From NCBI GenBank assembly GCA_964511375.1, contig CAZEEW010000002.1, positions 36,157 through 100,156 of the forward strand: DNA of 64,000 bases, written 5' to 3'. Source of the DNA: an uncultured Gammaproteobacteria bacterium. Its GTDB lineage: Bacteria > Patescibacteriota > Patescibacteriia > Magasanikbacterales > GWA2-37-8. This document shows, in pieces, positions 7,243 through 39,711 of this stretch. Both the position numbers and the translations under genes were made by a program. Numbering within the stretch: the stretch's first letter is position 1; every line of letters begins with the position of its first letter. Under the pieces are notes generated by a model. That model worked only from the letters and a program-made list of their open reading frames with translations, searched no databases and was not told where the DNA came from.

Positions 7243-8055
7243 ATGTTAAATTATCATTTATATATGAAATACATTGCAAGATTGGGGTTAATAATAGGTG
7301 TAGTGTTATTGCTCGGTGCTTCTTGTGTTCCACAAGGGAATCAAGTACCAAGAACGAATACTCCTGTAAACAATAATGTAGCAAGCACAACAGACTCAAA
7401 TTCTGTCAATTCTGAAGTGCGTAACTCTGCTCCAACTGTTACGGGTTTACCCAAAGCGACTACAACTAGACCAGTAGTTAAACCCGTTACAACTTCCACT
7501 AATCCCTTGCCCTGCAATTCAAATGCTCAGTGTGTGTCTGGTAAGTTGTGTGTTAATAGCGAGTGCGTTCCAGCGGAAACGGTTCTACCAAAAGATCCAG
7601 TAACTGGTGAATTGCTCTGCAACAACAATGCCCAGTGTATTCCTGGGAAGCTTTGTGTGAACCAACACTGTGTACCAGCTGAGACCGCGCTCCCCACCAA
7701 TACCACCACCGGACAATTGCTTTGTAGTAATGATGCCCAATGTGTCCACGGTAAGGTTTGTGTTAATGGGAATTGTGTGGCTTCTTCTACAACTTCAAAA
7801 AGCTTGCCATCAGTTACTAATTGCTCATCAGATAGCCAGTGTAAAACCGGCGAAGCTTGTTTCCAGGGACGATGTACTACTGTGCCAGCAACCTGTAAGT
7901 ACCATACGGAATGTTTAAGCGATGATTATGTTTGTAGTAACGGGACCTGTGTTTGGCCAGGCTCAAGTGGTCATACTTGTCAGAATTCTTCCGGTGAAAG
8001 ATGGCATTGTCTGAATACCCAGAAGTGTGGAGTCAAAGAATTTGAGTGTATATAA
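7243..8055 (+). CDS. Secreted/lipoprotein-like cysteine-rich repeat protein
   Basis: N-terminal signal/lipobox-like LLGASC; S/T/N-rich linker; 3-4 tandem ~35-aa repeats CxxxAQCxxGKxCVNxxCV; alternative start at M8 (7264). Confidence 0.65.
   Translation: MLNYHLYMKYIARLGLIIGVVLLLGASCVPQGNQVPRTNTPVNNNVASTTDSNSVNSEVRNSAPTVTGLPKATTTRPVVKPVTTSTNPLPCNSNAQCVSGKLCVNSECVPAETVLPKDPVTGELLCNNNAQCIPGKLCVNQHCVPAETALPTNTTTGQLLCSNDAQCVHGKVCVNGNCVASSTTSKSLPSVTNCSSDSQCKTGEACFQGRCTTVPATCKYHTECLSDDYVCSNGTCVWPGSSGHTCQNSSGERWHCLNTQKCGVKEFECI
7510..7810 (+). repeat. In-frame degenerate tandem repeats (~105 bp x3) encoding the Cys-rich modules
   Basis: tgcaa(t/c)…aatgc(t/c)cagtgt…ggtaag(t/c)t(t/g)tgtgt(t/g)aa repeated at ~7510, ~7615, ~7720. 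Confidence 0.7.
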
Positions 8056-8068
8056 TTTATCGTAAAAT

Positions 8069-8105
8069 AAACACACCACCAGCTAAACTGGTGGTGTGTT
8101 ATATA
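8069..8105. terminator. Hairpin acacaccaccag/ctggtggtgtgt after Cys-rich gene; start of GC-rich islet 1
   Basis: 12-bp perfect stem, short loop. Confidence 0.5.
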
Positions 8106-8217
8106 CTAAATTCCTGTTCACGCGTATCTCCTTGTTATTCCCCCAAAACTTTAGGAAAATAACGGGCGGCGCGAACGAGGAACTTCGAGGTGGAGAATGC
8201 CACCCGTTGGCGATCGG

Positions 8218-8478
8218 TCAGTAGGTGTAACCTAGCTGCCGACGCCGTTCAGCTTCCGCGCGACGCTCGCGCTCCGCCGGTGCGAGCTTTTCGCACCGCG
8301 GGAGGAGGTTGCAGTCGAAGCAGGTCGACTGGACCTGCCCACCCATGGCGCGGGTGACGCGCTCGACGAAGTCGTGGCACGGGCTGTTCTTCAGTCCGCC
8401 GGCCCTCTTCCTCTCTTGGCCGGCCTTCCTCGTGGCTTCCCGGACTCTCTCGCGAGCCCGCCGCTGTTTCGCTCCCAT
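8218..8478 (-). CDS. GC-rich islet 1: small Arg/Lys-rich protein with Cys cluster (putative zinc-ribbon), 86 aa from ATG (TTG-extended ORF to 8529)
   Basis: ~65% GC segment 8150-8545 in a ~40% GC genome; GGAG 5 nt upstream of ATG; C-x17-C-x2-C-x5-C. Confidence 0.45.
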   Translation of the reverse strand: MGAKQRRARERVREATRKAGQERKRAGGLKNSPCHDFVERVTRAMGGQVQSTCFDCNLLPRCEKLAPAERERRAEAERRRQLGYTY

Positions 8479-8578
8479 GGCTTCTCCATGCACCCAGTAA
8501 ACCGGGGTGCCTCGGTGGACAATATACAACCACTATTTTATCTTGTTGTCAATTGTTTGTTTGCTGGGCTAACTAGGT

Positions 8579-8613
8579 ATTGACAAAAGACAGGGGATAT
8601 AGTAGAATTTCCG
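8579..8613 (+). promoter_or_regulatory. Sigma70-like promoter for rpsL-rpsG-fusA (TTGACA-17-TAGAAT)
   Basis: ttgacaaaagacaggggatatagtagaat. Confidence 0.55.
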
Positions 8614-8684: not shown

Positions 8685-9113
8685 ATGCCTACATTAAACC
8701 AAATAATGCGCAAAGGCCGAACCCCAAAGGTTCAAAAAACCAAGTCTCCGGCCTTGCAATTTACGGTCGACAACTTACACCGTAAGAAAACAGTTTTTGC
8801 AAAGGGAACCAGTTTTAAGCGTGGTGTTTGTACCAAGGTGTACACCACTACTCCTAAAAAACCAAACTCTGCTTTGCGTAAAGTTGCCAAAGTTCGTTTG
8901 TCCAATGGTATGGAAGTTATCGCTTACATTCCAGGCGAAGGACACAATCTTCAGGAACACTCTATCGTCCTTATCCGCGGTGGTCGTGTAAAAGACTTAC
9001 CAGGTGTCCGCTACCACATTGTACGCGGTGTTTATGATACTCAAGGTGTAGAAAAGAGACGACGTGGTCGCAGTCGTTATGGTGCCAAGAGACCGAAAGA
9101 AGCGAAAAAGTAA
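8685..9113 (+). CDS. rpsL: 30S ribosomal protein S12
   Basis: MPTLNQ…KGR…[10 protein letters not shown] hallmark. Confidence 0.95.
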
Positions 9114-9137: not shown

Positions 9138-9614
9138 ATGCGTGGAAATAATACTAAAAAGCGTGCTGTTCAACCAGACTTGAAATATGGTAATGTGAAC
9201 TTAGCACGGTTTATCAACTTCGTAATGCAAAACGGGAAAAAATCTGTTGCTCAACAGATCGTGTATTCCGCACTCGAAAAAGCTTCTCAAGAATTAAAGA
9301 AGGATGCTATTGCAATCTTTGATGAAGTGGTTCGCACAATTTCTCCTCAATTAGAAATTCGTACTCGTCGTGTTGGTGGTGCTAACTACCAAGTTCCAAT
9401 GCCGGTACGTGGTGACCGTCAGGTGGCTCTAGCTTTCCGTTGGATTATTGGCGCTGCTCGCAACAAGAAAGGCAAACCAATGGCAGATAAGCTAGCAACT
9501 GTTTTAGTTGAAAGCTTCCAGGGTGTTGGTGACGCTGTTAAAAAGCGTGATGATGTACATAGAATGGCTGAAGCTAACAAGGCTTTTGCCCACTTCGCCA
9601 ATTTCTCTCGCTAG
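9138..9614 (+). CDS. rpsG: 30S ribosomal protein S7
   Basis: Conserved S7 sequence, position after rpsL. Confidence 0.95.
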   Translation: MRGNNTKKRAVQPDLKYGNVNLARFINFVMQNGKKSVAQQIVYSALEKASQELKKDAIAIFDEVVRTISPQLEIRTRRVGGANYQVPMPVRGDRQVALAFRWIIGAARNKKGKPMADKLATVLVESFQGVGDAVKKRDDVHRMAEANKAFAHFANFSR

Positions 9615-9643: not shown

Positions 9644-11719
9644 ATGCCTCGAGAATTTAGTTTAGATAAAACTCGTAATATCGGTATTGCCGCGCACATT
9701 GATGCCGGTAAAACCACTACGACCGAACGTGTGCTTTTTTACACAGGTCGTAAACACAAAATTGGTGAGGTGCACGAAGGTGCGGCCGAAATGGACTGGA
9801 TGGAACAGGAAAAAGAACGCGGCATTACCATTACTTCCGCTGCGACTACTTGTTTTTGGAAAGATCACCGCATTAACATCATCGATACACCAGGTCACGT
9901 GGACTTTACTGTAGAAGTAGAACGTTCTTTGCGTGTATTGGATGGTGCAGTGGCTGTTTTCGATGGTTCACAAGGTGTTGAACCGCAGTCTGAAACTGTC
10001 TGGCATCAAGCAGATAAATATCACGTACCTCGTGTTTGTTTTATTAACAAAATGGACAAGATGGGCGCGGACTTTTACATGAGCTTGGATTCTATCCGGG
10101 AACGTTTGTCTCCAAATGCTTTTGCTATTCAGTTACCAATCGGTCAAGAAAGTTCCTTTAGTGGTATCATTGATCTTATTGAAGAAAAAGCTTACAAATT
10201 TGAGGGTATGAATGGTGAAAAAATGATAGAAATTGACATTCCTGAGGACATGAAGGAAAAAGTGAAAGATCATCGCCATAAAATGGTAGAAAAAGTGGCT
10301 GAAGCCTCTGACGATCTCATGACCAAGTATTTGAACGGTGAAGCCTTAAGCATTGAGGAAATTAAAGCTGGGATCCGTGCTTTGGTAGTTAAAAATGCCA
10401 TGCAACCAGTTATCTGTGGCTCTGCTTTAGCCAACATTGGTGTTCAATTAATGTTAGATTCGGTTGTTTGGTACTTACCATCACCATTGGACGTACCTCC
10501 AGTAAAAGGTATTAATCCAAATAATGAACAAGAAGAAGAAAGAAAAACCAGCGACGACGAATCGTTCTCTGCTCTAGCTTTCAAGATTGCCACTGACCCC
10601 TTCGTTGGTAAACTCGCTTTCTTCCGTGTTTATTCTGGTAAGATTTCTGCTGGTAGTTATTTATACAATGCCACGACTGGTAACAAGGAGCGCTTAGGTC
10701 GTATCGTCCGCATGCATGCTAATCATCGGGAAGACGTAACTGATGTTTACGCTGGTGAAATCGCTGCCGCCATTGGTTTGAAAGAAGTTACTACTGGTGA
10801 CACTTTGTGTGATGAGAATAAACCAATTGTTTTGGAAAAGATTACTTTCCCAGAACCGGTTATCTCAGTTGCGATCGAACCAAAAACCAAGGCTGACCAA
10901 GAAAAGATTGGCTTGGCTTTACAGAAATTGGCTGAAGAAGATCCAACCTTCAAAGTCCATACTGACGAAGAAACTCTCCAGACTATTATTTCTGGTATGG
11001 GTGAGTTGCACTTGGATATTATCGTTGACCGCATGAAACGCGAGTTTAAAGTAGAAGCCAACGTCGGTGCCCCACAGGTTGCTTACAAAGAAGCAATTAA
11101 GATGAGCGCTGAAGGTGAAGGTAAATACATTAAACAGTCTGGTGGTCGTGGTCAGTACGGTCATTGTTGGTTACGTGTTGAGCCACAGGAGCGCGGTAAA
11201 GGTTTTGAATTTATTGATGAAGTTAAAGGTGGTGTAGTTCCTCGTGAATACTTACCAGCGATTGAAAAAGGTGTCAAAGAATCCATTTCACGTGGTATCC
11301 AAGCTGGGTACCCGGTTGTAGATGTTAAAGTTACTTGTTTTGATGGTTCTTACCACGAAGTTGACTCTTCAGAAATGGCCTTTAAAATGGCCGGCTCCAT
11401 GGCTTTCCAGGATGCCTGCCATAAAGGTAATCCGGTAATATTGGAACCAATCATGAAGGTGGAAGTAGTCACACCAGAACAATATATGGGTGAAGTAATT
11501 GGTGACCTTAACTCCAAGCGAGGTCAGATTCAAGAAATGACTGATCGTGGCCAGATGAAAGTTGTTCGGGCCATGGTACCCTTGGCAAGCATGTTTGGTT
11601 ATGCCACCTCTTTACGCAGTATGTCTCAGGGTCGCGCTAGTTACGCAATGGAATTCGATCATTACGCTGACGTACCAAACAATGTTGCTCAACAGATTAT
11701 TGAGGGAAAGAAGAAATAG
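9644..11719 (+). CDS. fusA: Elongation factor G
   Basis: [32 protein letters not shown]; 691 aa. Confidence 0.95.
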
Positions 11720-11735
11720 CCTCTTAAACGATGAA

Positions 11736-11764
11736 AGCCTCGCATTGAGCGGGGCTTTTCTTTT
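11736..11764 (+). terminator. Rho-independent terminator after fusA (aagcctcgc-attga-gcggggctt-TTTT)
   Basis: Stem-loop + T-run; near-identical copy at 12461-12487. Confidence 0.7.
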
Positions 11765-11827
11765 GCAACTCTCTTGTTGACTTAAGAAAAATATTTTATA
11801 CTATGACCGTAACTAATTTAGGATATT

Positions 11828-12457
11828 ATGGGAGATAAGCCAGCATTTTTTGGAGACAGAATCCACAACGCACTGGATCAGAAAGAAATTCAATACGAAA
11901 TTAAGACCCCGCCCGTCTGGTATATACAGGGCTCTTATGTCTTGGACAAAATATTTGGTGTACGTTTAGCGAGAGATGTAGACATTTTTGCCCCACAAGG
12001 AGGCAGCCCGCCTCAATTAGAAACTATTGATGATCTGCCTGTCCACCTGACTGAGGTCGGGGATAAATCATATTTTCCGCCTGTGCTTGGCACGTATAAT
12101 ACTGACCGCTATCTGCTTGATCCTGCTGGGCAGGTTATAAAACCAAGCGGTTTCCCGGAGCGGCCCATAAGATTAGAGTTGTTGCCCGGGAGAAAATTAA
12201 GTATTGTTAACGTTGTCCGTGGAGTTAAGGTTTGTAAAAGGTATGGTTTAGAATACTCTCCTGAATTAAAAGATGAGATGACTAAGTCACTACGCAAATT
12301 ACTAAGTAAACAATCGATGGCGATGCTCATGATATTTAGCGAATCAGATTTGGCTGAATTTATTAAAGAAACTGTTGAAGCAGAAACTTCTGAAGAAGAG
12401 AGAGGAAAAGTTTGGCAGGAAATGATAGCCTTGTGCCCGAAATTAGCTAGTAAATAA
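11828..12457 (+). CDS. Nucleotidyltransferase-fold (Pol beta superfamily-like) protein, hypothetical
   Basis: GS-x12-DVD motif (GSYVLDKIFGVRLARDVDIF) typical of minimal NTase fold. Confidence 0.45.
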   Translation: MGDKPAFFGDRIHNALDQKEIQYEIKTPPVWYIQGSYVLDKIFGVRLARDVDIFAPQGGSPPQLETIDDLPVHLTEVGDKSYFPPVLGTYNTDRYLLDPAGQVIKPSGFPERPIRLELLPGRKLSIVNVVRGVKVCKRYGLEYSPELKDEMTKSLRKLLSKQSMAMLMIFSESDLAEFIKETVEAETSEEERGKVWQEMIALCPKLASK

Positions 12458-12460
12458 ATC

Positions 12461-12487
12461 AAAGCCCCGCATTGTGCGGGGCTTTTG
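12461..12487. terminator. Bidirectional terminator (gccccgc-attgt-gcggggc), near-identical to the fusA terminator
   Basis: Perfect 7-bp GC stem + T-run; 24/26 identical to 11736-11761. Confidence 0.7.
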
Positions 12488-12793
12488 TTAGGCCGCTTCC
12501 TTGTTCTCTTCATCATCTGGACTTGAGACATCTGGATCTAATTCCAGTTCTTCATTTTCATCGTTTCCTGGTCCACCGAAAGCATCGCGCCTCAAACTTT
12601 CCTCTGTATCTTCATCATCAAACATCTCGTCTAGACTTTTCCCTGGCACTTCCGTACTTTTCAACTCGTGAACTGCTTTTTGTAAAGGTGTTTCTTTTCT
12701 TTTGGCACCGGGTATTTCTGGTGGTAATTCAGAGGTATCAAAAATCTCGTCTATAGATTTTCCTAGTTTAGGCTCACCATTTTTTCTTAGCAT
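12488..12793 (-). CDS. Small acidic protein with internal repeat (GKSIDEIFD… / GKSLDEMFD…)
   Basis: ORF with two ~35-aa acidic repeats; no known motif. Confidence 0.4.
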   Translation of the reverse strand: MLRKNGEPKLGKSIDEIFDTSELPPEIPGAKRKETPLQKAVHELKSTEVPGKSLDEMFDDEDTEESLRRDAFGGPGNDENEELELDPDVSSPDDEENKEAA

Positions 12794-12798
12794 ATAAA

Positions 12799-13770
12799 TT
12801 ATTTTAAAAATACATTACGAATAACTTGGTCGATTTCGACTTCGTTAATAAGAATATCATCAACCGGAAAATCATTCAAGAGTTTTATGGCAACTTGTTT
12901 CGCTTCTGTCTTTGGCACTTCTAAAACCGTTCGCTGCGGTGTTTTTTCTTTAATATTCCCTAATTTCTCTAAAGAACTATTTTGAATAGGTTCAGTAAAG
13001 GTCACTTCCAAAACTTTGTGATGTACGTATTGGTCGATTAATTTTCTTAGTCCACCATCGTAAATAATATTACCGTGATTAACAATGATTACCCTTTCAC
13101 ACAAAGCTTCAACATCTTCCATATAATGCGAAGTGAGTACGATCGTAATCTTTTTTTCTCTGTTGTACTTTTTTAAGAATTCTCTAATGTTGTTTTGAGA
13201 TATCACATCCAAACCAATCGTCGGCTCGTCCAAGAATAATACCTTGGGGGAATGAATTAAGGCCGCAACTAACTCACATTTCATTCTTTGGCCTAAAGAT
13301 AATTTACGAACTGGAATATCTAAGATGTCTTTAATATCTAGCAAAGTCGTTAATTCCTCTAAGGTTTGTTCAAACTGTTTTTTTGGTATTTCGTAAATTT
13401 CTTTGTTTAAAATAAAACTTTCCATGGCTGGTAAATCCCACCATAGCTGGTTTTTCTGACCCATGACTAGAGCAAATTGTTTCTGGAATTCTGCCTGTCG
13501 TTTCCAAGGAGTAAAGCCTAACACTTTCGCCTCTCCCGAGGTGGGGTAAAGAATACCGGAAAGCATTTTCAGTGTCGTCGTTTTACCGGCACCATTTGGT
13601 CCTAAGAAACCCACCATCTCTCCTTCTTGAATAGTAAAGTCTATTTGTTTTACTGCTTCAGTATAAAGTTTTTGTCGATGGAATAAACTTTTGACTGAGT
13701 TCCACAGCCCAGCTTGTTTTTTGTAATATTCGTAGGTTTTAGATAAACCTTTAACTTCAATAATCGCCAT
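12799..13770 (-). CDS. ABC transporter ATP-binding protein
   Basis: Walker A GPNGAGKTT, signature LSLGQ, Walker B LFLDEPT. Confidence 0.9.
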   Translation of the reverse strand: MAIIEVKGLSKTYEYYKKQAGLWNSVKSLFHRQKLYTEAVKQIDFTIQEGEMVGFLGPNGAGKTTTLKMLSGILYPTSGEAKVLGFTPWKRQAEFQKQFALVMGQKNQLWWDLPAMESFILNKEIYEIPKKQFEQTLEELTTLLDIKDILDIPVRKLSLGQRMKCELVAALIHSPKVLFLDEPTIGLDVISQNNIREFLKKYNREKKITIVLTSHYMEDVEALCERVIIVNHGNIIYDGGLRKLIDQYVHHKVLEVTFTEPIQNSSLEKLGNIKEKTPQRTVLEVPKTEAKQVAIKLLNDFPVDDILINEVEIDQVIRNVFLK

Positions 13771-13793
13771 ATGGTTTGGTTAGATTACTTTTA

Positions 13794-14587
13794 CTAAATG
13801 CCCACTCCCTCATATTTCTTAATACCAAAATGCCATGTGATTTTGATTGCAATAAATAAAATGCCGATCCACATTACTTCGATACCGATCCCTTTCCAAG
13901 CAGTTACTAGAGGCATCCTCCCTAAAAAGATTTGGGCAGGTACAAAGAAACTGTAGGCAAAAGGTAAGAAAAAACTCATAGTAACAAACCAAGTCGGTAA
14001 AAGATTGAGAGGAAAATATCCACCAGCAAAGAAACGGCGCAGGCGTAAGATAATAGTATTCAACCCATGTACTTCATCCTGCCAAAAGTAATAAGACCCG
14101 TAAGATATGAAATGAACATTTCAATTATAAATGATAACGCTACCATTATTAGTATTGTTATAATTACAATTGGATCACTATTTAATTTCAGTCGATCGAG
14201 AAAAAATAAAGTAATGACTAATTGTGTTGTAAAGGCAAGAATAGTTACTAGACCAATCCGACCGATTTCTCGAACTAAAATATATCTAAAATAGCTAATC
14301 GGTTTTAATATATGAGTAGTTAAAAGACCTTCTTTGATATCTCTGGCGACAACTTCATAAAGGAAGTTACGAATTGCGACTGAAATAAGATTGCCAATCA
14401 ATAAATAGGTTAGCATCTCTGGTAGAGTGTACCCACCAATAATATTATTTCCCTGATATATTGCTGACCACATTAATATAACAATGAGCATCTCAGCGAT
14501 ATCACCGAAACGATAAGCCACTATGTCAAAGCGGTAAGTTAACGAACGCTGGAATGCCATTTTGATGATCGTTGCATTTTTGCTCAT
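13794..14587 (-). pseudogene. ABC-2 family permease, third paralog, split by a -1 frameshift at ~14060 (N-part 14060-14587, C-part 13794-14063)
   Basis: 175-aa + 89-aa ORFs overlap by 4 nt; C-part ends GIKKYEGVGI like paralogs (…GIKKYSSEGI, …LKKYSSASS); combined ~264 aa vs 261/265 aa paralogs. Confidence 0.55.
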
Positions 14588-14588
14588 A

Positions 14589-15374
14589 CTAACTCGACGC
14601 GCTTGAATATTTTTTTAAGCTATTATTCCAAAACAGAATTGATCCGTAAATCCAAAGACCGGTAATTAAAAAAGCCAGTAATATATTTTGCCAGCTTAAT
14701 AATCCTAATAGCCCTTTCACGGGGAAAGCCACAATTACGAAAATAGGCAGGATGAAAGTAAAAAAGAATTGAAACGCTGAGTTAAATATTTCCGGTGGAA
14801 AGCTGCCAAGATACAACCCACGACGATACAGCCATATGACACTATCACTTTCTTCGGTCCTAATTGTAATAGCGGCTGTTAAAACATGCATGCCCATTAC
14901 AATTATCATTCCTAATATAATGAGTAATATGTACCATGCCATTTCCGCCCATCCCCAAGTAAGAGGTAACCTCTGGATTACTAGTATTGTGAGTACAATT
15001 AAAATAGAGCTGAAAATAATATCTAGTAGGTCGGTTAAACGGGAGAGGATGTAGAAAAGAGTGTTTACGGGTTTTGGTAAAAGATAATCCAATTGTCCTC
15101 GCTGGATATCGTTTTTAAATACATATACACCACGGAACAAAGCTTGGGCTAATGAATCGATGAGGTTAAATGTTAAAAAGAAAAGCAAGGCTTCGTATTT
15201 ACCGTAGCCAGAGATATTGTCGGTAAAACGAAAGATGGAAAAGATCATGAGGGCGAAGAAACCAAAACGTATAATTTTGCCAATAAAATAGCTTACCGTA
15301 TCAATACGATTTGTCGCATAGCTCATGAAAGCACAGTTGGTAAGTTGTACCCAGACTCGAACGTGTTTAATCAT
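14589..15374 (-). CDS. ABC-2 family transporter permease (paralog 2)
   Basis: 6 TM hydrophobic protein, C-terminal …LKKYSSASS shared motif, adjacent to ABC ATPase. Confidence 0.75.
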   Translation of the reverse strand: MIKHVRVWVQLTNCAFMSYATNRIDTVSYFIGKIIRFGFFALMIFSIFRFTDNISGYGKYEALLFFLTFNLIDSLAQALFRGVYVFKNDIQRGQLDYLLPKPVNTLFYILSRLTDLLDIIFSSILIVLTILVIQRLPLTWGWAEMAWYILLIILGMIIVMGMHVLTAAITIRTEESDSVIWLYRRGLYLGSFPPEIFNSAFQFFFTFILPIFVIVAFPVKGLLGLLSWQNILLAFLITGLWIYGSILFWNNSLKKYSSASS

Positions 15375-16168
15375 ATGCCTTCACTGGAATATTTTTTAAT
15401 TCCCGAATTAAACATCAGTCTATTTAGGCCTACTAAAATTATTAGCCACATCACACCGCCAAAAATGTAAAAAGGCATGTCAGTAAGTATTCCTTTTTTG
15501 AGGAAGATCATGAGTGGGTGGTAGATCATGTAGATGAAAGGTAGTTTATGTAGAATGGAAAAGAAAATCCCACCAGTTAAAATTGAGATTGGGAAATATG
15601 CTCCAGAAGCAAATTCCAGGATCCATTCAAATAAAAATCGCGGCCCCATTGCTTCGCGTGACCAAAAGGCTAGATAATTAAGTAGAGTGCTAAAAAAGAA
15701 GTAAAGTAACTGAGCAAGAATGATCGCCAGGATAAAATAAAACCAGGTTGTGTAACTGGTTGGTATAAACCAGTCAACCTTAAGAAGATAGGTTAAGATT
15801 AGTGTTTCAACTATGGCCGCTAAAGTTCCTACCAGGCGTTCTGCTAATTCTTCAAAATAATAGAAGGCTACAGAATTAAATGGTTTAACCAAATTGACAG
15901 AGTACGTACCTTTGTTGATATCACTCGCCATGCGCCTAGTTTGGCTGCCAAAAACAAAAGCCCGAAGGATGTTTACTAGAAGAACGTAAGTAGCGATTTC
16001 TTCCGGTGTAAACCCAGCAAATCGGCCGGTTTGGCGAGCGAGGGTGACCCAGAGGAAGTACAAAAGAAGAATAGTAACTAAACCTTGCAATCGGCCAATA
16101 AGAAAATTAAGTCGGTAGGCGAAAATCGATCCAATCCGATTCTTAAAAACTAGCCAGTATTTGTTCAT
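15371..16168 (-). CDS. ABC-2 family transporter permease (paralog 1)
   Basis: Polytopic membrane protein, C-terminal GIKKYSSEGI. Confidence 0.75.
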   Translation of the reverse strand: MNKYWLVFKNRIGSIFAYRLNFLIGRLQGLVTILLLYFLWVTLARQTGRFAGFTPEEIATYVLLVNILRAFVFGSQTRRMASDINKGTYSVNLVKPFNSVAFYYFEELAERLVGTLAAIVETLILTYLLKVDWFIPTSYTTWFYFILAIILAQLLYFFFSTLLNYLAFWSREAMGPRFLFEWILEFASGAYFPISILTGGIFFSILHKLPFIYMIYHPLMIFLKKGILTDMPFYIFGGVMWLIILVGLNRLMFNSGIKKYSSEGI

Positions 16169-16171
16169 AAC

Positions 16172-17725
16172 TTAAATTAGCGATTGGCTTGTCATTTCCT
16201 GGGGTTGATCTAAACCAAGTAGAGCGAGAATAGTTGGAGCAATCTGGTTTAAATAACCAGTTTGAGGAAGATTAAGGCCAGGTTTGGTAATGACCAACGG
16301 TACGTGGTTGAAGGTGTGAGCCGTATGAGGTTCCTCTCCGCTCCACATACTTTCGATGTTGCCGTGGTCAGCGGTAATAACCATAGTATATCCCAATTCC
16401 TCTGCCTTGGGAACTATGGAAGACAAAGCTTTATCAACTAATTGTACAGCTGTGGCCGCCGCTGTCATATCTCCACTGTGGCCAACCATGTCTCCATTTG
16501 CGATATTACAGACAATTAGAGAAAACTCATTGCGTTCAATTACGCGCAGTAAGCTGTTCGTTACTTCCGGTAAACTCATTTCTGGATTAGAAGCATAATT
16601 CATGAGACCAAGTGACGGAACCACTAATCTTTCTTCGCCTGGGAAAACGTCTTCGCGTCCGCCATTAAAGAAGTAGGTGATGTGAGCATATTTCTCTGTC
16701 TCGGCTACTCGGAATTGTTTTAATCCTTTTTTGCTTACCCACTCGCCGATGGTGTTAAGGGGAAGCTCATTGGGGAATAACACAGCTACGTTAGTGAAAT
16801 CTTTATCGTATTCAATTAGACTCGCTAAATACAGATTACTTGGTATCTGTAGAGTGTTTTGCACAGTATGTGGTGCACGTTTTGTAAGTAGGCGCACTAA
16901 TTGTCTCATGCGGTCAGCACGGAAATTGAAGAAAATAACGGCGTCGTTTTCTTTAACCACGTCATCACTAAAGCGTGTTGGCTGGATAAACTCGTCAGTG
17001 ATTTCCTCAGAGTATTGGCTGTCTAAGAATACCTCTGGCTTAACTAAAACCAACTCATCTTGTTCGGTCATCGCCTTATAAACAGTCGTGGTTCGATCCC
17101 AGTTTTCACTACGATCCATCGCAATCGCTCGGCCAGTCATTGTCGCAATTCTAATCCCTTCAGACAGGTGGGGCTTTAACGTTTCCAACAATTTTCTAGC
17201 GCTTTTCGGCGCCATGTCGCGGCCATCTAAGAATAAGTGAATCGCGGTTTTCAGGTTGTTATCCTTTGCCCACTCGACTAGGGCAATAATATGATTAATG
17301 TGTGAGTGGATGCCACCGTCGCTAAATAATCCTGCTAGATGCAGTATTCCCTTGTTTAGAGTTAAATGTTTTTTAACCTCTTCTAATTTTGGATTCGTTT
17401 TAAAAGTATTAGTTTCAATTGCGTTGTCGATTTTCGCCGCATTCTGGTAGATAATTCTGCCTGCACCCATGGTCATATGCCCTACTTCCGAACCAGACAA
17501 GCATCCTTTCGGTAAGCCCACTGATTCCTCTTTGGCATGTAAGACCGTGTTGGGGTAATTTTTGAGTAGCTCATTCCAGAATTTTGGTTGAGTTTGAAAA
17601 ATAGCATTGTGTTCATTGTTTTCACCGGTTCCCCAACCGTCTAAAATTAATAAGATTACTTTCTTGTCCCCCAGTTTTTTATGACTCATAAATATATTAG
17701 ATTTTAAACCTGACAGTGAGGGCAA
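16172..17725 (-). CDS. gpmI: 2,3-bisphosphoglycerate-independent phosphoglycerate mutase
   Basis: ILDGWG, 517 aa iPGM architecture, Mn-binding DHGN. Confidence 0.9.
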   Translation of the reverse strand: MPSLSGLKSNIFMSHKKLGDKKVILLILDGWGTGENNEHNAIFQTQPKFWNELLKNYPNTVLHAKEESVGLPKGCLSGSEVGHMTMGAGRIIYQNAAKIDNAIETNTFKTNPKLEEVKKHLTLNKGILHLAGLFSDGGIHSHINHIIALVEWAKDNNLKTAIHLFLDGRDMAPKSARKLLETLKPHLSEGIRIATMTGRAIAMDRSENWDRTTTVYKAMTEQDELVLVKPEVFLDSQYSEEITDEFIQPTRFSDDVVKENDAVIFFNFRADRMRQLVRLLTKRAPHTVQNTLQIPSNLYLASLIEYDKDFTNVAVLFPNELPLNTIGEWVSKKGLKQFRVAETEKYAHITYFFNGGREDVFPGEERLVVPSLGLMNYASNPEMSLPEVTNSLLRVIERNEFSLIVCNIANGDMVGHSGDMTAAATAVQLVDKALSSIVPKAEELGYTMVITADHGNIESMWSGEEPHTAHTFNHVPLVITKPGLNLPQTGYLNQIAPTILALLGLDQPQEMTSQSLI

Positions 17726-18564
17726 AAATGTGTCCCACGACCAACCAGGCGTACTTTTTTAATGATATGTTTTTTACATTTTTTACATTTTTTATTGCCT
17801 CGTCCATAGACATTGAGAAAATCATAATGTTTACCTTTTTGTCCCTTTAGATCAATGTAATTGCTAAAACTTGTTCCTCGGTTTTTAATTCCTAGTTCCA
17901 GTACCCTCCTACAAGCCGCATGCAGTTTTCTAACCTCATAGTCATTTAAAGATCTAGCTGTACGGTCTGGTAAAACTCCAGCGAAGAAGCATGCTTCATC
18001 GGCATAAATATTACCGAGGCCAGCAATCAGTGTTTGGTCTAAAAGTAAAGCCTTTAGTTTTGTTTTTCTTTTTTTTAATAAGTTTTTAAAGTAAGCCAGA
18101 GTAAATTTGTGATCTATTGGTTCAATACCAAATCTAGCGCGCGCTTTTTGTAGACCAACGTCATCGACAACTTGCATGAATCCGAATCGCCGCAAGTCAT
18201 TAAAATACAGTTTTGCCCCGCTGGAAAAACTGAAAACTACCCGGGTAAACTTATTTGGTAAACTGGCTTCAATATTTGTAAAAGGATGCCCACCAGAAAG
18301 ACGTTTCTTTTTTTCTTCCAAAATAAACTGACCAGTCATCTTTAAATGAGTGAGCAAATACTGGTCCTCTTGTAAAACAAAAATTAAGAGCTTACCAACA
18401 CGGTCGATTCTTTTGAAGCAGTTATTAAAAACAGGTTTTTTAAAATCACTAATTTTACCACGGATAGTTTGTGGAGACAGTACTTCAAGAGAAGTAATTT
18501 TTTTATTCAATATATGTGCTTCTAAGTCTCGACGAATTGTTTCGACTTCTGGCAATTCAGGCAT
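17704..18564 (-). CDS. mutM: Formamidopyrimidine-DNA glycosylase
   Basis: N-terminal MPELPEVETIRR, C-terminal zinc finger CxxC…CPHCQ. Confidence 0.9.
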   Translation of the reverse strand: MPELPEVETIRRDLEAHILNKKITSLEVLSPQTIRGKISDFKKPVFNNCFKRIDRVGKLLIFVLQEDQYLLTHLKMTGQFILEEKKKRLSGGHPFTNIEASLPNKFTRVVFSFSSGAKLYFNDLRRFGFMQVVDDVGLQKARARFGIEPIDHKFTLAYFKNLLKKRKTKLKALLLDQTLIAGLGNIYADEACFFAGVLPDRTARSLNDYEVRKLHAACRRVLELGIKNRGTSFSNYIDLKGQKGKHYDFLNVYGRGNKKCKKCKKHIIKKVRLVGRGTHFCPHCQV

Positions 18565-18741
18565 ATAGTTTATTAAATAACCAGTTAATCATATTACTGT
18601 AAAGACAGAAAAAAATCAACAATTTTTTCATTAAAAAGTCAAATTTATGGTCCACTAGCGTTGACTTATTGTACACCTGGGTTACTGTACTAAAATGGTA
18701 TGACTTCGTAGTCCCAGCGCAAGCTGGGGGAGGAGTACAAC

Positions 18742-19656
18742 ATGTGGTGGGTTTTCGTGGCTGCCGTTTCGGCTGCTGTCGGTCAGCCTCCTGACGAGTG
18801 TTGGCAACCGGCCCGAGCCGCGCTGGAATCAGTCGGCGCTGTCTGGACCGGCACGCAGCCAGACGACACCCGTGTCGGCTGCCGTGAGGTGGTCGACGGA
18901 ATGTGGGGATCCTGGGAGTACACTGAGGAGAAGCTGGCCCGCTCAGCCGAAAGAGACGGTTGTCGTGGAGCCAGAGTGCTCCATAGGAGCTATGCTGCTG
19001 GACCCGCCGGGTGCAGTGTCATCTGTGTGCGCCTCAAGTGTTACGCCGAGGATGTTGACCTGGCGCCGGAGATGGAGACCGGCATCGACGAAGTCACGCT
19101 CCTCGCTCTCCTCAGGAAATCGGAACCTGAGGAGCAGCTTCCTGAGGAAGACGACTACGCATCTCTGGAGGCTGCTTCGGAAGAAGCGGTCCACCCAGAC
19201 GAGGAGGAGCTTGTTCCTCCAGACCCTCCGTCTTCGGAGGATCCAGCTCGGCTCGCCGGCGACATGACTGGGCTGGCGGTTCTCCTCGAGAGACAGTCCG
19301 GGTCGTCCGAGACTGAGATGCGCTTTCCTCGTCGGAACGCGAAGCTGGCTCAGCCGGTGTATGAGCCGGAGCCTATCGCTGACTCGGTCGTGGCCGAGGC
19401 GAATCCTCAGCCAATTGCGATACTCGAGCAGGCTCCCTCAGTGCCGGAGTCCCCGCTGCCGGCTGCTTCCCCCGAACTTCGTGCGTTCCAGGTGGAGATT
19501 GGGGGTATGATCGACGAATTTCGCCGCTCGCGTGAGTCTCTCAGGGAGAAGCGGCGGGAGATGCGGGAACGTTCCCGCGCCATTCGCGATGACTGGCGGC
19601 GCAAGCGTGACGCTTTGCGTTTCCAGACTCGCCAACTCGGGGCAGCGCGTCCTTGA
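18742..19656 (+). CDS. GC-rich islet 2: 304-aa Pro/Glu/Arg-rich hypothetical protein
   Basis: ~63% GC block 18716-19735; GGAGG 8 nt upstream of ATG while native genes lack SD; hairpins after stop; no recognised domain. Confidence 0.4.
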   Translation: MWWVFVAAVSAAVGQPPDECWQPARAALESVGAVWTGTQPDDTRVGCREVVDGMWGSWEYTEEKLARSAERDGCRGARVLHRSYAAGPAGCSVICVRLKCYAEDVDLAPEMETGIDEVTLLALLRKSEPEEQLPEEDDYASLEAASEEAVHPDEEELVPPDPPSSEDPARLAGDMTGLAVLLERQSGSSETEMRFPRRNAKLAQPVYEPEPIADSVVAEANPQPIAILEQAPSVPESPLPAASPELRAFQVEIGGMIDEFRRSRESLREKRREMRERSRAIRDDWRRKRDALRFQTRQLGAARP

Positions 19657-19825
19657 AGGGGCAGCTGTCCTTCGCCCCTCGATCTGAGGTATCGGGTCGA
19701 GGGCTGTGTCACGAGCGTCAAATGTTTTGGCTCTGGTGAAACCGTATTCATACACAGTTAATACACACAATTTTCGTTGACGAGACGATATATTTTGTTA
19801 TAATGATGAGGTAATTATTGAATTT

Positions 19826-20308
19826 ATGAATAATAATCAATTGGATAGGGTTTTACGCTTAGTTAAGCGAACAGGAGACAAGGTGGTTGTTTTAGATCGT
19901 GCGAGCGATGCGGCAGTAGTACTCATGGATCTAGATGATTATGAATTATTACTAGAGGAAAGTTTTACGAACGATGGCGTTGGTCCTACGAATTTAGACA
20001 ACGATTCTTTCGCTGACTGGGAAATAGACGATGCACACAATGAAGATCAAGAGACTGAAGAAATAGCTCATGAAGACACAGATGAACCTCTAGCCCCACT
20101 CGATACTCTTGAAGAAGAGTTACCTTTAGAATCCTTCGAAAAGGAAGTTGCTGAACACGGTGACGGAGTAGGAGAAGATCTGGTGGCTGAGCCTATAGTT
20201 GAAGCATTGCCAACTCAAGATAGAAATATTTCGCTAGACAAAGAGGAAAAAATAGATGATTTGCCTGACGACGGCGAAGAAGAGCGCTTCTATTTAGAGC
20301 CGGTTTAG
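19826..20308 (+). CDS. Acidic protein with Phd/YefM-antitoxin-like N-terminus and long D/E-rich tail
   Basis: N-term DRVLRLVKRTGDKVVVLDRASDAAVVLMDLDDYELLLE resembles Phd/YefM fold; no adjacent toxin. Confidence 0.4.
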   Translation: MNNNQLDRVLRLVKRTGDKVVVLDRASDAAVVLMDLDDYELLLEESFTNDGVGPTNLDNDSFADWEIDDAHNEDQETEEIAHEDTDEPLAPLDTLEEELPLESFEKEVAEHGDGVGEDLVAEPIVEALPTQDRNISLDKEEKIDDLPDDGEEERFYLEPV

Positions 20309-20397
20309 TCCGTTTACTGGTCGGATTGAACACTATTTGTATTCAGGGTAGGTCAGTTTTTTCTCAAATTTTGGCCATTTGTCCACAGTTTTTCCCC

Positions 20398-20425
20398 TTG
20401 CCAAAATTTAAATATCTGCTATAAT
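20398..20425 (+). promoter_or_regulatory. Sigma70-like promoter for tuf (TTGCCA-16-TATAAT)
   Basis: ttgccaaaatttaaatatctgctataat. Confidence 0.55.
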
Positions 20426-20434
20426 GCACACGCT

Positions 20435-20453
20435 GTAATTGGTGAACCAATTA
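20435..20453 (+). promoter_or_regulatory. Palindrome gtaattggt-g-accaattac in tuf leader
   Basis: 9-bp inverted repeat arms just downstream of -10. Confidence 0.35.
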
Positions 20454-20556
20454 CGCTATTATTTTGTCTTAATTTATTATTTATATACAATTGTCGCGGC
20501 TGGATAACAAATCTGCACCGACCACTCGGTAGCAGTGCCGTGTAAGTATTAAATGT

Positions 20557-21744
20557 ATGGCTGATTTTCAAAGAAACAAGCCACACGTTAATATCGGTAC
20601 TATTGGTCACGTTGACCATGGTAAAACAACGTTAACTGCAGCTATCTTGCAGGTTTTGACGGCTCATGGCATGACCGCTCAAAAGAAGGGTGTTGATGAT
20701 TTGGATAAAGCTCCAGAATCAAAAGCCCGCGGTATCACCATCTCAACTGCTCATGTTGAGTATGAAACCGAAAAACGCCACTACGCTCACGTTGACTGTC
20801 CAGGTCACGCTGACTACGTAAAGAACATGATTACTGGTGCTGCTCAGATGGATGGTGCAATCTTGGTTGTTTCCGCTGCTGATGGTCCAATGCCTCAGAC
20901 TCGTGAACACATCTTGCTTGCTCGCCAGGTAGGTGTACCTTATATCGTTGTTTTCTTAAACAAAGTTGACCAAGTATCTGATCCAGAACTTGTTGACTTA
21001 GTTGAAGCCGAAGTTCGCGACTTATTAAATAAATACAAATTCCCAGGCGATACCACTCCGATCATCCGTGGTTCCGCTTTGAAAGCTTTAGAAAATCCAT
21101 CAGATCCTGCTGCTTCTCAACCTGTTATGGATCTTATGGCTAAAGTTGATGAATATATTCCAGAGCCAACTCGTGCTACTGACAAGCCAATGTTGATGCC
21201 AGTAGAAGACGTTTTCTCTATCGAAGGTCGTGGTACCGTAGTAACTGGTCGTATTGAGCGCGGCATGATCAGCTTAAACGATGAAGTAGAAATCGTTGGT
21301 TTACGCGATACTCAAAAGACCGTTGTGACTGGTATCGAAATGTTTAACAAGAGCTTAAAAGAAGGCCAAGCTGGTGACAATGCTGGTTTGTTACTTCGCG
21401 GTACTAAGAAAGAAGATGTTGAGCGTGGTATGGTTCTTGCTAAACCAGGTTCCATTACCCCACACACCGAATTCGAGGCCAACGTTTACGTTTTGACCAA
21501 AGAAGAAGGTGGCCGCCACAAACCATTCTTCAAGGGCTATAAGCCACAGTTCTACATCCGTACTACTGACGTAACTGGTGAGGTAGAGTTAGCTGAAGGC
21601 GTTGAAATGGTTATGCCAGGTGACACTGTTAACATCACCGTAAAATTGATCGTACCAGTTGCTATGGAAGAAAAGATGAACTTCGCTATCCGCGAAGGTG
21701 GCCGCACCGTTGGTGCTGGTGTTGTAACCAAGATTATTAAGTAA
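20557..21744 (+). CDS. tuf: Elongation factor Tu
   Basis: [25 protein letters not shown]. Confidence 0.97.
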
Positions 21745-21752
21745 ATTTAATG

Positions 21753-21790
21753 AGGGGGCCGTATTTAAACGGCCCCCTTAATTTAGTTCT
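21753..21790 (+). terminator. Rho-independent terminator after tuf (agggggccg-tatttaaa-cggccccct)
   Basis: 9-bp GC stem. Confidence 0.65.
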
Positions 21791-21804: not shown

Positions 21805-22152
21805 ATGACGACAGCCATGAACCCGACCACCCAGAAAAAAGAGGAGCAAGGGAGTAGAATCCGTATCAAGATTCGTGCTTATGATAATCACATTCTTGAC
21901 CAGGCAGTAAAGACCATTATTGAAACTGCTGAACGCAATGACGCGAAAGTAGTTGGTCCAGTACCATTGCCAACGGAAAAGACCAAATTTACCATCCTCC
22001 GCTCCACTTTTGTGCACAAAGATGCTCGTGAACAATATGAAATGAGCGTGCACAAGCGCTTGGTCGACATTATGAACGCTAGCCCAAAATGCATTGATGC
22101 TTTAATGAGCTTATCTTTGCCAGCTGGTGTTGATGTCGAAATCAAGATGTAA
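21805..22152 (+). CDS. rpsJ: 30S ribosomal protein S10
   Basis: RIRIKIRAYD…LPTEKTKFTILRS…HKDAREQYE. Confidence 0.93.
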   Translation: MTTAMNPTTQKKEEQGSRIRIKIRAYDNHILDQAVKTIIETAERNDAKVVGPVPLPTEKTKFTILRSTFVHKDAREQYEMSVHKRLVDIMNASPKCIDALMSLSLPAGVDVEIKM

Positions 22153-22195
22153 AAATTAGGGGTTTTTTGACAACCGGATAGTCTTTCCTTTGTTC

Positions 22196-22224
22196 TTGAC
22201 AAATAGTCGGGTTTGTGTTATTAT
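22196..22224 (+). promoter_or_regulatory. Consensus-like promoter TTGACA-17-TATTAT inside the rpsJ-rplC gap
   Basis: ttgacaaatagtcgggtttgtgttattat; a second TTGACA at 22167 and a third at 22332. Confidence 0.45.
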
Positions 22225-22412
22225 TTTGGCACACCAATTTATCTTTATCTCGCGGTAAATAAGATTTTCTTCTCTCTGGGTAATTCAGAGAGGAAAAAAA
22301 CATTTAGACGAGCAAAAGATAAGAAAGGGTTTTGACAATAGTTAAACGACAATTAAAGCCAATCTTAGAAAAGCCATATTTTATGGCACTTCGGTATATG
22401 CCGGAAAAGAAA

Positions 22413-22467
22413 GGCTAGAAGCCCGGATTAGAAAGTAATATTTTTAGTCAGGGCTTCTAGTTTTTTG
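22413..22467 (+). terminator. Long stem-loop (ggctagaagccc … gggcttctag) + T6, 40 bp upstream of rplC: terminator/attenuator or 3' end of a small RNA
   Basis: 10-12 bp stem, 26-nt loop, followed by tttttt. Confidence 0.5.
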
Positions 22468-22509
22468 TTAAGACCCTCTAGGTCGGGGGTCCGCTAACAC
22501 ATTATATAT

Positions 22510-32694: not shown

Positions 32695-32735
32695 AAAAAC
32701 CCAGTACTATATAGTGCTGGGTTTTATTGTTTCGG
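32695..32735 (+). terminator. Terminator after secY (aaaaacccagtact-atat-agtgctgggttttattgtt); near-duplicate after asnS
   Basis: Stem + T-run; same frame aaaacccag…ctgggttttattgt as 37478-37512. Confidence 0.6.
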
Positions 32736-32741
32736 TTTATA

Positions 32742-32797
32742 CTTCTCGACTCTCCAGAAAAGTCTATCTTAAACTTCTCTGGAGTCCAGTCGAGAAG
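32742..32797. repeat. Imperfect ~20-bp-arm inverted repeat (cttctcgactctccaga … tctggagtccagtcgagaag) at edge of GC-rich islet 3
   Basis: Seen directly; no T-run, so not an obvious terminator. Confidence 0.5.
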
Positions 32798-32834
32798 CGC
32801 GGGGTGAAGGCGCGACGCGTCTGTCCTCCGCCCC

Positions 32835-33125
32835 TTAGGTCAAGAATGCCTCGAGCAGGGCTCTGACGATCGTTCGTCCGAGCTGGTTCTGCAGGGTCGG
32901 CATTGCCGAGCCCGTCATCCCGGCTAGGAAGAAAATCGCCGCAACCGCACCGAGCGCTACCCCGGTAAGGGGAGGGTGCGGAGGGTTCTTGAGTCCGTCG
33001 TTAATCGCTGCCGCAGTTGCGACAGCAAGCGTCAGTGCTCCTAGTACGGTCCAGATCATATTCTTTCCTCCTCTTGTTTCCGTTGCGAAACAGCCAACTT
33101 TATCACAAACTCCGCCCATTGTCAA
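32835..33125 (-). CDS. GC-rich islet 3: small two-TM membrane protein (74 aa from ATG at 33059 with AGGAGG SD; longer 96-aa ORF to 33125)
   Basis: ~62% GC block between secY and adk; strong SD; two hydrophobic helices with G/A-rich faces. Confidence 0.45.
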   Translation of the reverse strand: MTMGGVCDKVGCFATETRGGKNMIWTVLGALTLAVATAAAINDGLKNPPHPPLTGVALGAVAAIFFLAGMTGSAMPTLQNQLGRTIVRALLEAFLT

Positions 33126-35850: not shown

Positions 35851-35858
35851 TTAGAGAA

Positions 35859-35880
35859 CCCCACGACCGTGGTCGTGGGG
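35859..35880. terminator. Perfect GC hairpin ccccacgacc-gt-ggtcgtgggg after recO; edge of GC-rich islet 4
   Basis: 10-bp perfect stem; no T-run. Confidence 0.45.
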
Positions 35881-35906
35881 GCTGTGGGCCTTGCGCTTGG
35901 ACGGGT

Positions 35907-36041
35907 TTAACCACCACAAGCTGCTCGCAGGGCCAGGACAATAAATCCGACGATGATCAGGGCGCCAATCGCCCTAAATATCCCGCCGAAGATGAGGCAG
36001 ATCAGGCCGAGCGCAAACCCGGCCAAAAACCAACTTAGCAT
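35907..36041 (-). CDS. GC-rich islet 4: 44-aa hydrophobic single/double-TM peptide (MLSWFLAGFALGLICLIFGGIFRAIGALIIVGFIVLALRAACGG); below the ORF-track size cutoff
   Basis: GGAGG 5 nt upstream of ATG; ~62% GC; translated by hand. Confidence 0.4.
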   Translation of the reverse strand: MLSWFLAGFALGLICLIFGGIFRAIGALIIVGFIVLALRAACGG

Positions 36042-37477: not shown

Positions 37478-37512
37478 AAAACCCAGCGCTAATTGCACTG
37501 GGTTTTATTGTG
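37478..37512 (+). terminator. Terminator after asnS (aaaacccagcgc-taatt-gcactgggttttattgt)
   Basis: Near-duplicate of secY terminator. Confidence 0.6.
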
Positions 37513-37583: not shown

Positions 37584-37612
37584 ATCGGACGCGCACACGC
37601 GCATGTTGGGGA

Positions 37613-39705: not shown

Positions 39706-39711
39706 AAGTCG

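Follow-up and report, generated by a model that had tools for sequence, protein, structure and literature searches.

We analysed 64,000 nucleotides of contig CAZEEW010000002.1 (hereafter the window, to which all coordinates without a locus handle refer), in which the str operon genes fusA and tuf are held apart by an interval carrying genes on both strands. The best matches to the EF-G protein encoded by fusA came from metagenome-assembled genomes of Patescibacteria, mostly labelled Candidatus Magasanikbacteria, with top identities of 95% and 94% followed by a broad group at 80-86%. The open reading frame (ORF) listing and Pfam annotation gave the order rpsL, rpsG, fusA, an 8,837-bp interval, tuf, rpsJ and then the S10/spc genes, with fusA ending at 11719 and tuf starting at 20557. 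In a canonical str operon tuf follows fusA directly with no terminator between them, whereas here the interval intervenes and a predicted intrinsic terminator, T1, stands after fusA. The split of about 8.8 kb reported in the original prediction, which had been made from this sequence alone, was therefore confirmed, and it compares with gaps of 85-900 bp in most of the other, more distant loci fetched. Reading from fusA, the interval contains T1, a nucleotidyltransferase-like (NTase-like) gene, a second terminator (T2), a convergent acidic ORF, a minus-strand operon with ATP-binding cassette (ABC-2) transporter genes, gpmI and mutM, a plus-strand GC-rich ORF and a small 'Phd-like' gene (Table 1).

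To place these genes in a phylogenetic context, the loci of the closest relatives were taken with 10-kb flanks and compared using tblastn of the window proteins and gene tables, and a metagenome EF-G scan, with relatives at 80% identity or below among the matches listed, served for deep synteny. Across rpsL-fusA, DNA identity was 84.2% between the window and locus L002, 84.2% between the window and L007, and 89.8% between L002 and L007, with the window as the outgroup. In the three loci at 95% EF-G identity (L002, L005 and L006), fusA was followed by a GC-rich 188-aa ORF, a 136-aa helical ORF and an RVT_1 reverse transcriptase, and then by the ABC ATPase, three permeases, mutM, the GC-rich ORF, the Phd-like gene and tuf. 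In L007 and L008 (EF-G 94%), the fusA stop codon was separated from the convergent ABC-ATPase stop codon by 58 bp holding one bidirectional terminator, beyond which lay two permeases, mutM, the GC-rich ORF, the Phd-like gene and tuf. Both groups lacked the NTase-like gene, the acidic ORF and gpmI, and tblastn found no NTase-like gene at the L002 and L007 loci. Alignments showed that homology among the window, L002 and L007 ends exactly at the fusA stop and restarts exactly at the ATPase stop. What lies between the two stops is 58 bp in L007, a 2.9-kb element in L002 and 1.08 kb with the NTase-like gene and the acidic ORF in the window. We conclude that the convergent junction between the fusA and ATPase stops is the true variable slot.

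The element occupying the slot in L002, L005 and L006 is a diversity-generating retroelement (DGR), the start of which was also seen in L003 and L004. Its template repeat (TR) and the variable repeat (VR) at the C-terminal end of the target ORF differ at 19 positions, 18 of which are TR adenines (A-to-N), and the pattern that defines a DGR was found in all three loci. The GC-rich sequence after fusA in L004 was considered as a chimeric join and this was rejected, as L002, L005 and L006 show the DGR target gene together with the TR. The window itself contained no reverse transcriptase in Pfam scans and no TR/VR repeat in the repeat search.

Further from the window, at 80-85% EF-G identity, the fusA-tuf gap measured 2.4-3 kb and was filled with unrelated genes: a purF-like gene in L207, mutM on the plus strand plus UMPH-1 in L208 (its mutM is 46% identical to that of the window, which lies on the opposite strand), a radical-SAM gene with small ORFs in L210, and Lys/Glu-rich ORFs in L127. 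In L209, fusA was followed by dksA, lspA and others through dnaN and dnaA, and tuf was not found within 10 kb. The proposal that the fusA-tuf junction is an insertion hotspot is thus upheld, the content being different in every Magasanikbacteria lineage examined. The same comparison does not bear out the description of the 8.8 kb as a block of inserted accessory genes. Judged from synteny, the interval is made up of layers of at least three different ages. Phylum-deep and native is the Phd-like gene; mutM, the ABC-2 genes and the GC-rich ORF are common to the closest relatives and of roughly genus-level age; and a lineage-specific layer consists of the NTase-like gene, the acidic ORF and gpmI. 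The arrangement is hence shared in part and not identical in all relatives, and the lineage-specific share comes to about 1.08 kb (NTase-like gene plus acidic ORF) and about 1.5 kb for gpmI.

The NTase-like gene is flanked by T1, which begins 14 nt past the fusA stop codon, and by T2, which lies 3 nt past the NTase-like stop codon and 1 nt before the stop codon of the convergent acidic ORF. Each consists of a GC-rich stem-loop with a T tract just downstream of a stop codon, as expected for intrinsic terminators, and the hairpin z-scores ranged from -3.2 to -5.5. Bordered by an A tract on one side and a T tract on the other, T2 is predicted to be a bidirectional terminator common to the NTase-like gene on the plus strand and the minus-strand operon, because its position is between convergent stop codons and its folding is as stable on one strand as on the other. 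T1 and T2 were identical at 24 of 26 positions. The original prediction of near-identical terminators on either side of the first inserted gene was right in this respect, with T1 placed about 2 nt away from the position found here (11734-11759). The two differences keep the structure, one being a G.U to G-C change in the stem and the other a loop base that adds an A-U pair. The 26-mer had 0 matches in dinucleotide shuffles of the window. No further copy was found in the window at up to 3 mismatches, nor did 1.4 Mb of Patescibacteria loci contain one at up to 6.

The likeness between the two terminators extends beyond the hairpin, by about 20 nt on its upstream side and 24 nt on its downstream side, so that T1 and T2 lie within direct repeats of about 70 nt (71% identity over 70 nt, with a repeat period of 727 bp). 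The flanks match at 26 of 44 positions. In 200,000 random window pairs the number of matches was 11.3 +/- 3.0, with a maximum of 25. A fairer control is provided by 117 independent occurrences of this hairpin in unrelated genomes, which share the terminator context; against these the T1 flanks gave 11.5 +/- 2.9 matches and the T2 flanks 11.8 +/- 3.2, each with a maximum of 21. Likeness between T1 and T2 thus goes past the constrained core and exceeds that of independent instances, as would be expected of duplication by descent. The fusA terminators of L002 and L007, which are orthologous to T1, differ from it in the upper stem and loop, and T1 is therefore less like these orthologues than it is like T2. 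At the L007 junction, the one bidirectional terminator likewise has an upper stem and loop sequence unlike T1 and T2, in a lineage that is only 84% identical in DNA. Because the flanks match at 26 of 44 positions while the 234 independent comparisons reach at most 21, we consider it likely that T1 and T2 are the products of a local duplication spanning about 70 nt, or of gene conversion to the same effect.

The hairpin itself is a poor marker of descent. A scan of a collection of 185,579 species genomes for the 23-nt core AAGCCNCGCATTGNGCGGGGCTT returned at least 118 matches in unrelated genomes of many phyla, each of them single in its stretch, where our own estimate of the chance expectation is <1, and among the core matches listed the T2 26-mer itself turned up 15 times without a mismatch. 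On these counts the hairpin design is generic and recurs by convergence. The suggestion that the terminator pair is a duplication signature therefore stands on its flanks, which point to common descent, and falls as far as the hairpin alone is concerned; likewise, the 26-mer that was to be searched for elsewhere has no other copy in the window, and its core recurs across unrelated phyla. It follows that T1 and T2 could be independent terminators that converged on the same optimal hairpin, T2 being simply the NTase-like gene's own terminator, without any duplication. The frequency of the core across phyla, the recurrence of the exact T2 sequence, and the outer stem that T1 shares with the fusA terminators of the relatives (AAAGC...GGGGCTTTT) all speak for this explanation. 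However, core matches that are single in each stretch imply a low per-genome frequency, which makes two copies 727 bp apart very unlikely, and neither the excess of flank matches nor the lack of additional copies in the related loci is expected from convergence. We regard independent convergence as unlikely.

Several points nonetheless weigh against the overall reading that we favour. With a generic hairpin, hairpin identity alone proves nothing, and the flank likeness is short, fades past about 24 nt and was measured in a window picked after the repeat had been seen. Copies were counted in 64 kb, and the other ~94% of an assumed ~1-Mb genome may hold more. The window also holds a second look-alike pair, at 32696-32725 and 37478-37506, and look-alike terminators may thus be a general habit of this genome and not the mark of this insertion. 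Promoter and terminator activities are predictions. No empty-site allele was found, the closest relative having 84% DNA identity, so the direction and order of events are inferred. With regard to the second pair (AAAACCCAGT.C...G.GCTGGGTTTTATTGT), its members are 4.8 kb apart, both contain a G.U wobble, and they show a compensatory A-U to G-C difference and common flanking bases.

The NTase-like gene and its flanking repeats might also form a small non-autonomous mobile cassette, with the terminator repeats as recombination sites and a recombinase acting in trans. In keeping with this idea, direct repeats flank a single promoter-gene-terminator unit, the gene family is rare and occurs in an unrelated context in L211, the same slot carries a DGR in relatives, and the window holds the second look-alike pair. 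However, Pfam scans of all ORFs between 5497 and 22152 found no integrase, transposase or relaxase in the interval, so that no mobility or recombinase gene is encoded there or adjoins it, and the repeats have no inverted-repeat ends apart from the hairpin. The T1/T2 hairpin was absent around the L211 homologue, the only informative homologue context, and only one instance of the arrangement is known. No tRNA, tmRNA or att-like target lies by the interval (the nearest tRNA is at 39711, and an Rfam gathering scan of the window matched three tRNAs only and nothing in the interval), and the sole flanking repeat is the terminator module. The locus does not resemble an integron gene cassette, since there is no integrase and the repeats are plain terminator hairpins, although no attC-specific search (model or imperfect-palindrome scan) was made. 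The term cassette, as first applied to this gene, is therefore unproven in the sense of a mobile element, and we find such a cassette distinctly improbable.

A more far-reaching possibility is that these reduced genomes capture genes by an undescribed process whose recombination substrate is the terminator module itself, a segment of about 70 nt being copied together with each incoming gene at a convergent junction. The presence of two independent look-alike pairs within 64 kb would fit, as would a slot that is variously filled by an NTase gene, filled by a DGR or left empty. If true, foreign genes would arrive pre-insulated beside highly expressed operons, but we consider such a process very unlikely.

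It is highly improbable that a contiguous fusA-tuf pair was interrupted by a single accessory island making up all of the 8.8 kb. Adjacency of fusA and tuf in most distant loci, the mixture of unrelated functions and the compositionally odd GC-rich ORF would agree with an island, yet synteny contradicts it: the parts differ in phylogenetic depth, the Phd-like gene is native at its position in most of the Patescibacteria loci fetched, and the interval, which lacks mobility genes, has a GC content like the rest of the window except in the GC-rich ORF. Finally, we give almost no credence to an assembly or binning artefact of this metagenome-assembled genome, for although this is an uncultivated organism and mis-joins can arise at repeats, a Logan contig from a separate assembly (L001, from SRR5011273) reproduces fusA-T1-NTase-T2-acidic ORF-ATPase over 3,013 bp (window 11018-14030) at 100% identity with 0 mismatches, the flanking genes are collinear with those of relatives, and a 26-nt repeat is far below the length of a sequencing read.

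We suggest that the fusA-tuf interval is probably an old operon boundary that has been colonised repeatedly, and not the result of a single insertion. The starting point is the small acidic Phd-like gene that lies between fusA and tuf in Patescibacteria. Because the Phd-like gene and tuf are each preceded by a promoter-like site, as judged by consensus matches, tuf is probably transcribed separately from rpsL-rpsG-fusA, and the gap would then be neutral ground. Magasanikbacteria lineages have filled it with unrelated genes, one of them splitting fusA and tuf fully, and the genus of the window fixed a convergent minus-strand operon of mutM and an ABC-2 exporter together with a divergent GC-rich ORF. 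The soft spot is the head-on meeting point of fusA transcription and the minus-strand operon. A convergent junction with one bidirectional terminator, as in L007, could take up DNA without breaking an operon, provided that both transcripts are stopped.

Arrival of the NTase-like gene at this point would have duplicated the ~70-nt segment with the junction terminator. T1 would then stop the heavily transcribed fusA message, and T2 would stop both the new gene and the oncoming operon that runs from mutM to the acidic ORF, leaving the newcomer as an insulated single-gene unit with its own promoter-like site. Selection for termination may have kept the hairpins near-identical while the flanks drifted to about 59% identity. 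The extra copy could have been left by a circular DNA with the same terminator that integrated through a single crossover (Campbell type), or could stem from a local event such as slippage during replication or illegitimate recombination, and the data do not distinguish these routes.

Table 1. Positions of genes, predicted signals and repeats in the window and in related loci.
Locus	Feature	Coordinates	Strand	Basis or remark
Window	Promoter-like site before rpsL, TTGACA-17-TAGAAT	8580-8608	+	consensus scan
Window	rpsL	8685-9113	+	Pfam Ribosom_S12_S23
Window	rpsG	9138-9614	+	Pfam Ribosomal_S7
Window	fusA	9644-11719	+	Pfam EF-G domains
Window	~70-nt direct repeat, copy 1 (holds T1)	11714-11783	+	repeat family D2
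Window	T1, predicted intrinsic terminator of fusA, AAAGCCTCGCATTGAGCGGGGCTTTT	11734-11759	+	-17.2 kcal/mol, z -3.2, U tract
Window	Promoter-like site between T1 and NTase-like gene, TTGACT-16-TACTAT	11777-11804	+	consensus scan, 9/12; consensus match only, not above shuffle expectation for the whole region
Window	NTase-like gene, 209 aa	11828-12457	+	ORF; between T1 and T2
Window	~70-nt direct repeat, copy 2 (holds T2)	12441-12510	+	repeat family D2
Window	T2, predicted bidirectional intrinsic terminator, AAAGCCCCGCATTGTGCGGGGCTTTT	12461-12486	both	-20.1 kcal/mol (+), -19.8 kcal/mol (-)
Window	Acidic ORF, 101 aa, internal repeat GKSIDEIFD / GKSLDEMFD	12488-12793	-	translation; 28-nt internal repeat D16
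Window	ABC ATPase	12799-13770	-	Pfam ABC_tran
Window	Permease A, split	13794-14587	-	Pfam ABC2_membrane_6
Window	Permease B	14589-15374	-	Pfam ABC2_membrane_6
Window	Permease C	15371-16168	-	Pfam ABC2_membrane_6
Window	gpmI	16172-17725	-	Pfam iPGM_N, Metalloenzyme
Window	mutM, first gene of minus-strand operon	17704-18564	-	Pfam Fapy_DNA_glyco, H2TH, zf-FPG
Window	GC-rich ORF ('GC islet 2'), 304 aa	18742-19656	+	63% GC in a 42% GC window
Window	Promoter-like site before Phd-like gene, TTGACG-16-TATAAT	19777-19804	+	consensus scan
Window	'Phd-like' small acidic protein, 160 aa	19826-20308	+	sub-threshold PhdYeFM_antitox
Window	Promoter-like site of tuf	20398-20425	+	consensus scan
Window	tuf	20557-21744	+	Pfam
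Window	Very strong tuf-rpsJ hairpin terminator	21751-21780	+	-24.3 kcal/mol
Window	rpsJ	21805-22152	+	Pfam
L002	DGR	12391-14923		directly after fusA
L002	DGR target ORF, 188 aa, C-terminal VR	VR 12819-12955		137-nt repeat, 86% identity to TR
L002	DGR template TR	13350-13486		137 nt
L002	DGR helical ORF, Avd position, 136 aa	13523-13933	-	ORF
L002	DGR reverse transcriptase	13820-14923		RVT_1
L002	Phd-like gene	20397-20879		
L007	Phd-like gene	11856-12350		
L208	Phd-like gene	4988-5356		
L210	Phd-like gene	14288-14803		
L127	Phd-like gene	7870-8451		
L140	Phd-like gene	4927-5409		

The NTase-like, acidic and GC-rich ORFs had no match in Pfam, NCBIfam or PADLOC. Look-ups for identical proteins matched the NTase-like protein only to a 3-kb Logan contig and gave nothing for EF-G, while the homologue search showed the NTase-like protein on a 109-kb NCBI contig too. 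For the NTase-like protein only three homologues were detected, at 46-49% identity, and the motif QGS-x14-DVD (GS-x14-DxD) is invariant in four of four family members. An AlphaFold model of the protein (predicted local distance difference test score [pLDDT] 80, predicted template modeling score [pTM] 0.77) had its best Foldseek matches among class II CCA-adding enzymes and tRNA nucleotidyltransferases (probability ~1.0, E 1.7e-3, template modeling score ~0.5). The 209-aa protein therefore has the Pol-beta-superfamily signature hG[GS]-x(9-14)-DxD on a predicted NTase fold. The invariant motif and the structural matches make the NTase-like label, which the gene had been given at the outset, a reasonable one for the modelled protein. 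The acidic ORF starts 5 nt past the stop codon of the ABC ATPase, and its tblastn matches were confined to L001, which derives from the same organism, indicating that it is lineage-specific among the loci compared.

In the majority of the Patescibacteria loci fetched, tuf is immediately preceded by the Phd-like gene, and a profile built from 17 members matched 1,488 cluster representatives at E <= 1e-3, with all the source names seen reading 'hypothetical protein'. The protein has a conserved N-domain of about 45 aa (...LV(K/R)(K/R)TGD...), followed by a variable acidic linker and an invariant C-terminal motif, EE(K/R)FYLEPV, that is present in the window and in L002, L007, L208, L210, L127 and L140, with variant C-termini in L128, L137, L144, L151 and L207. 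Its match to PhdYeFM_antitox (PF02604; E 1.7e-4, 21.7 bits) falls below the cutoff of 29.8, neither PADLOC nor a PDB profile search returned a match, and the AlphaFold model (pLDDT 55) was too poor for a fold search. In every locus examined the gene downstream is tuf and never a toxin gene such as Doc or YoeB, with which a Phd/YefM antitoxin would be paired. Given the sub-threshold score, the position of tuf in place of a toxin and the poor model, the Phd-like protein is not shown to be an antitoxin. From its distribution, we conclude that the gene is a native, phylum-deep neighbour of tuf that lies outside any insertion, and its annotation should be that of a conserved resident of the fusA-tuf spacer and not that of an island-borne antitoxin. 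EF-Tu is phosphorylated by Doc, the toxin with which Phd is paired, and in view of this link a regulatory or EF-Tu-linked role of the Phd-like family would be worth testing.

In the minus-strand operon, the ABC-2 genes gave an NCBIfam drrA-like match below cutoff and are 80-88% identical to their orthologues in L002 and L007, and mutM is 71-74% identical to its orthologues there. Permease A of the window is split into ORFs of 175 aa and 89 aa by a 1-nt deletion in a CC run (near 14060-14063), relative to the intact L002 orthologue, and is either a pseudogene or a sequencing error; in L007 permease A is lost altogether. The gpmI gene, which likely starts at the ATG at 17688, sits between mutM and permease C in this lineage only, and in L002 and L007 the mutM-permease C junction without gpmI is a 24-nt spacer or an overlap.

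The GC-rich ORF has orthologues at the same position in L002 and L007, with 63-65% GC in genomes of 42-44% and a protein identity of just 33-37%; the neighbouring genes are 60-97% identical across the three lineages. No Rfam match was found for it. The GC-rich region spans 18671-19750 in the window, with counterparts at L002 19368-20222 and L007 10752-11690. Four more islets of 57-61% GC (8121-8550, 32751-33090, 35841-36030 and 37561-38040) lie in spacers of ribosomal-protein clusters, mostly adjoining strong hairpin terminators. We considered whether the islets are relatives of one another or TR/VR pairs and rejected both, there being no significant similarity among them and no such repeat in the window.

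Outside the interval, the terminator between tuf and rpsJ and the 357-nt rpsJ-rplC spacer (22153-22509), which has a promoter-like site at 22196-22224, make the S10 cluster, too, look as if it were broken up into more small transcription units than its counterpart in model bacteria. Just upstream of the str genes (7243-8055) is a gene for a protein with DUF7107, Dickkopf_N and EB-module cysteine-rich repeats, domain families mostly seen in eukaryotes, which is kept in close relatives (L002 6928-7812 and L007 2660-3442).

These results show that the str-S10 cluster, the most conserved gene neighbourhood of bacteria, has a long-lived soft spot in Patescibacteria, where lineage-specific genes come and go, including a hypermutation retroelement in close relatives. 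The NTase-like gene exemplifies how a newcomer can be tolerated beside a very highly transcribed operon, with the junction terminator on both sides of it. For annotation, the fusA-tuf interval should not be called a single insertion.

Comparison with known systems places the locus among several of them in part. The DGRs of bacteria of the candidate phyla radiation (CPR; for example PMC8144416) are represented in the same slot by the canonical elements of L002, L005 and L006; the window differs in having no reverse transcriptase and no TR/VR, and all that the DGR demonstrates is that accessory modules can enter the slot. Genomic islands and integration hotspots share with this locus a variable content, conserved flanks and sharp breakpoints in close relatives, the slot being different in the window, L002 and L007, but the tRNA or tmRNA target, integrase, usual att repeats and typical size of an island are missing. 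In Campbell-type integration or local duplication, a short homologous segment becomes direct repeats flanking the inserted DNA. Direct repeats likewise flank inserted DNA here, although no circular donor, recombinase or empty site is evident and the repeat is about 70 nt long at 71% identity. T2 and the L007 terminator resemble bidirectional intrinsic terminators between convergent genes in their symmetric A-tract/GC-stem/T-tract layout and predicted equal folding on both strands; unlike such terminators, those of the window, as predicted from sequence, are two copies with a gene between them.

The closest parallel is with ribosomal gene clusters. In Gammaproteobacteria and Bacilli, the junctions between operons of the ribosomal super-cluster are invaded by small sets of genes, after which selection for linkage relaxes and the operons can separate fully, and 67% of the rearrangement events were traced to insertions (Brandis 2021, PMC8046335). 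As in that pattern, a few unrelated genes occupy a super-cluster boundary, they vary among lineages, linkage is sometimes lost (L209 here), and no mobile-element genes are needed. In contrast, the junctions described in that work lie between named operons (rpoBC-str and str-S10), whereas fusA|tuf falls inside the str operon of E. coli, and the host is a Patescibacterium, from a group that already has a small conserved gene between fusA and tuf. This conserved gene, together with the promoter-like sites before it and before tuf, suggests that fusA|tuf is already an operon boundary in Patescibacteria. We conclude that the event is of a known kind, gene turnover at an operon boundary, and that it extends a known pattern to an understudied phylum and leaves the current view of operon evolution unchanged.

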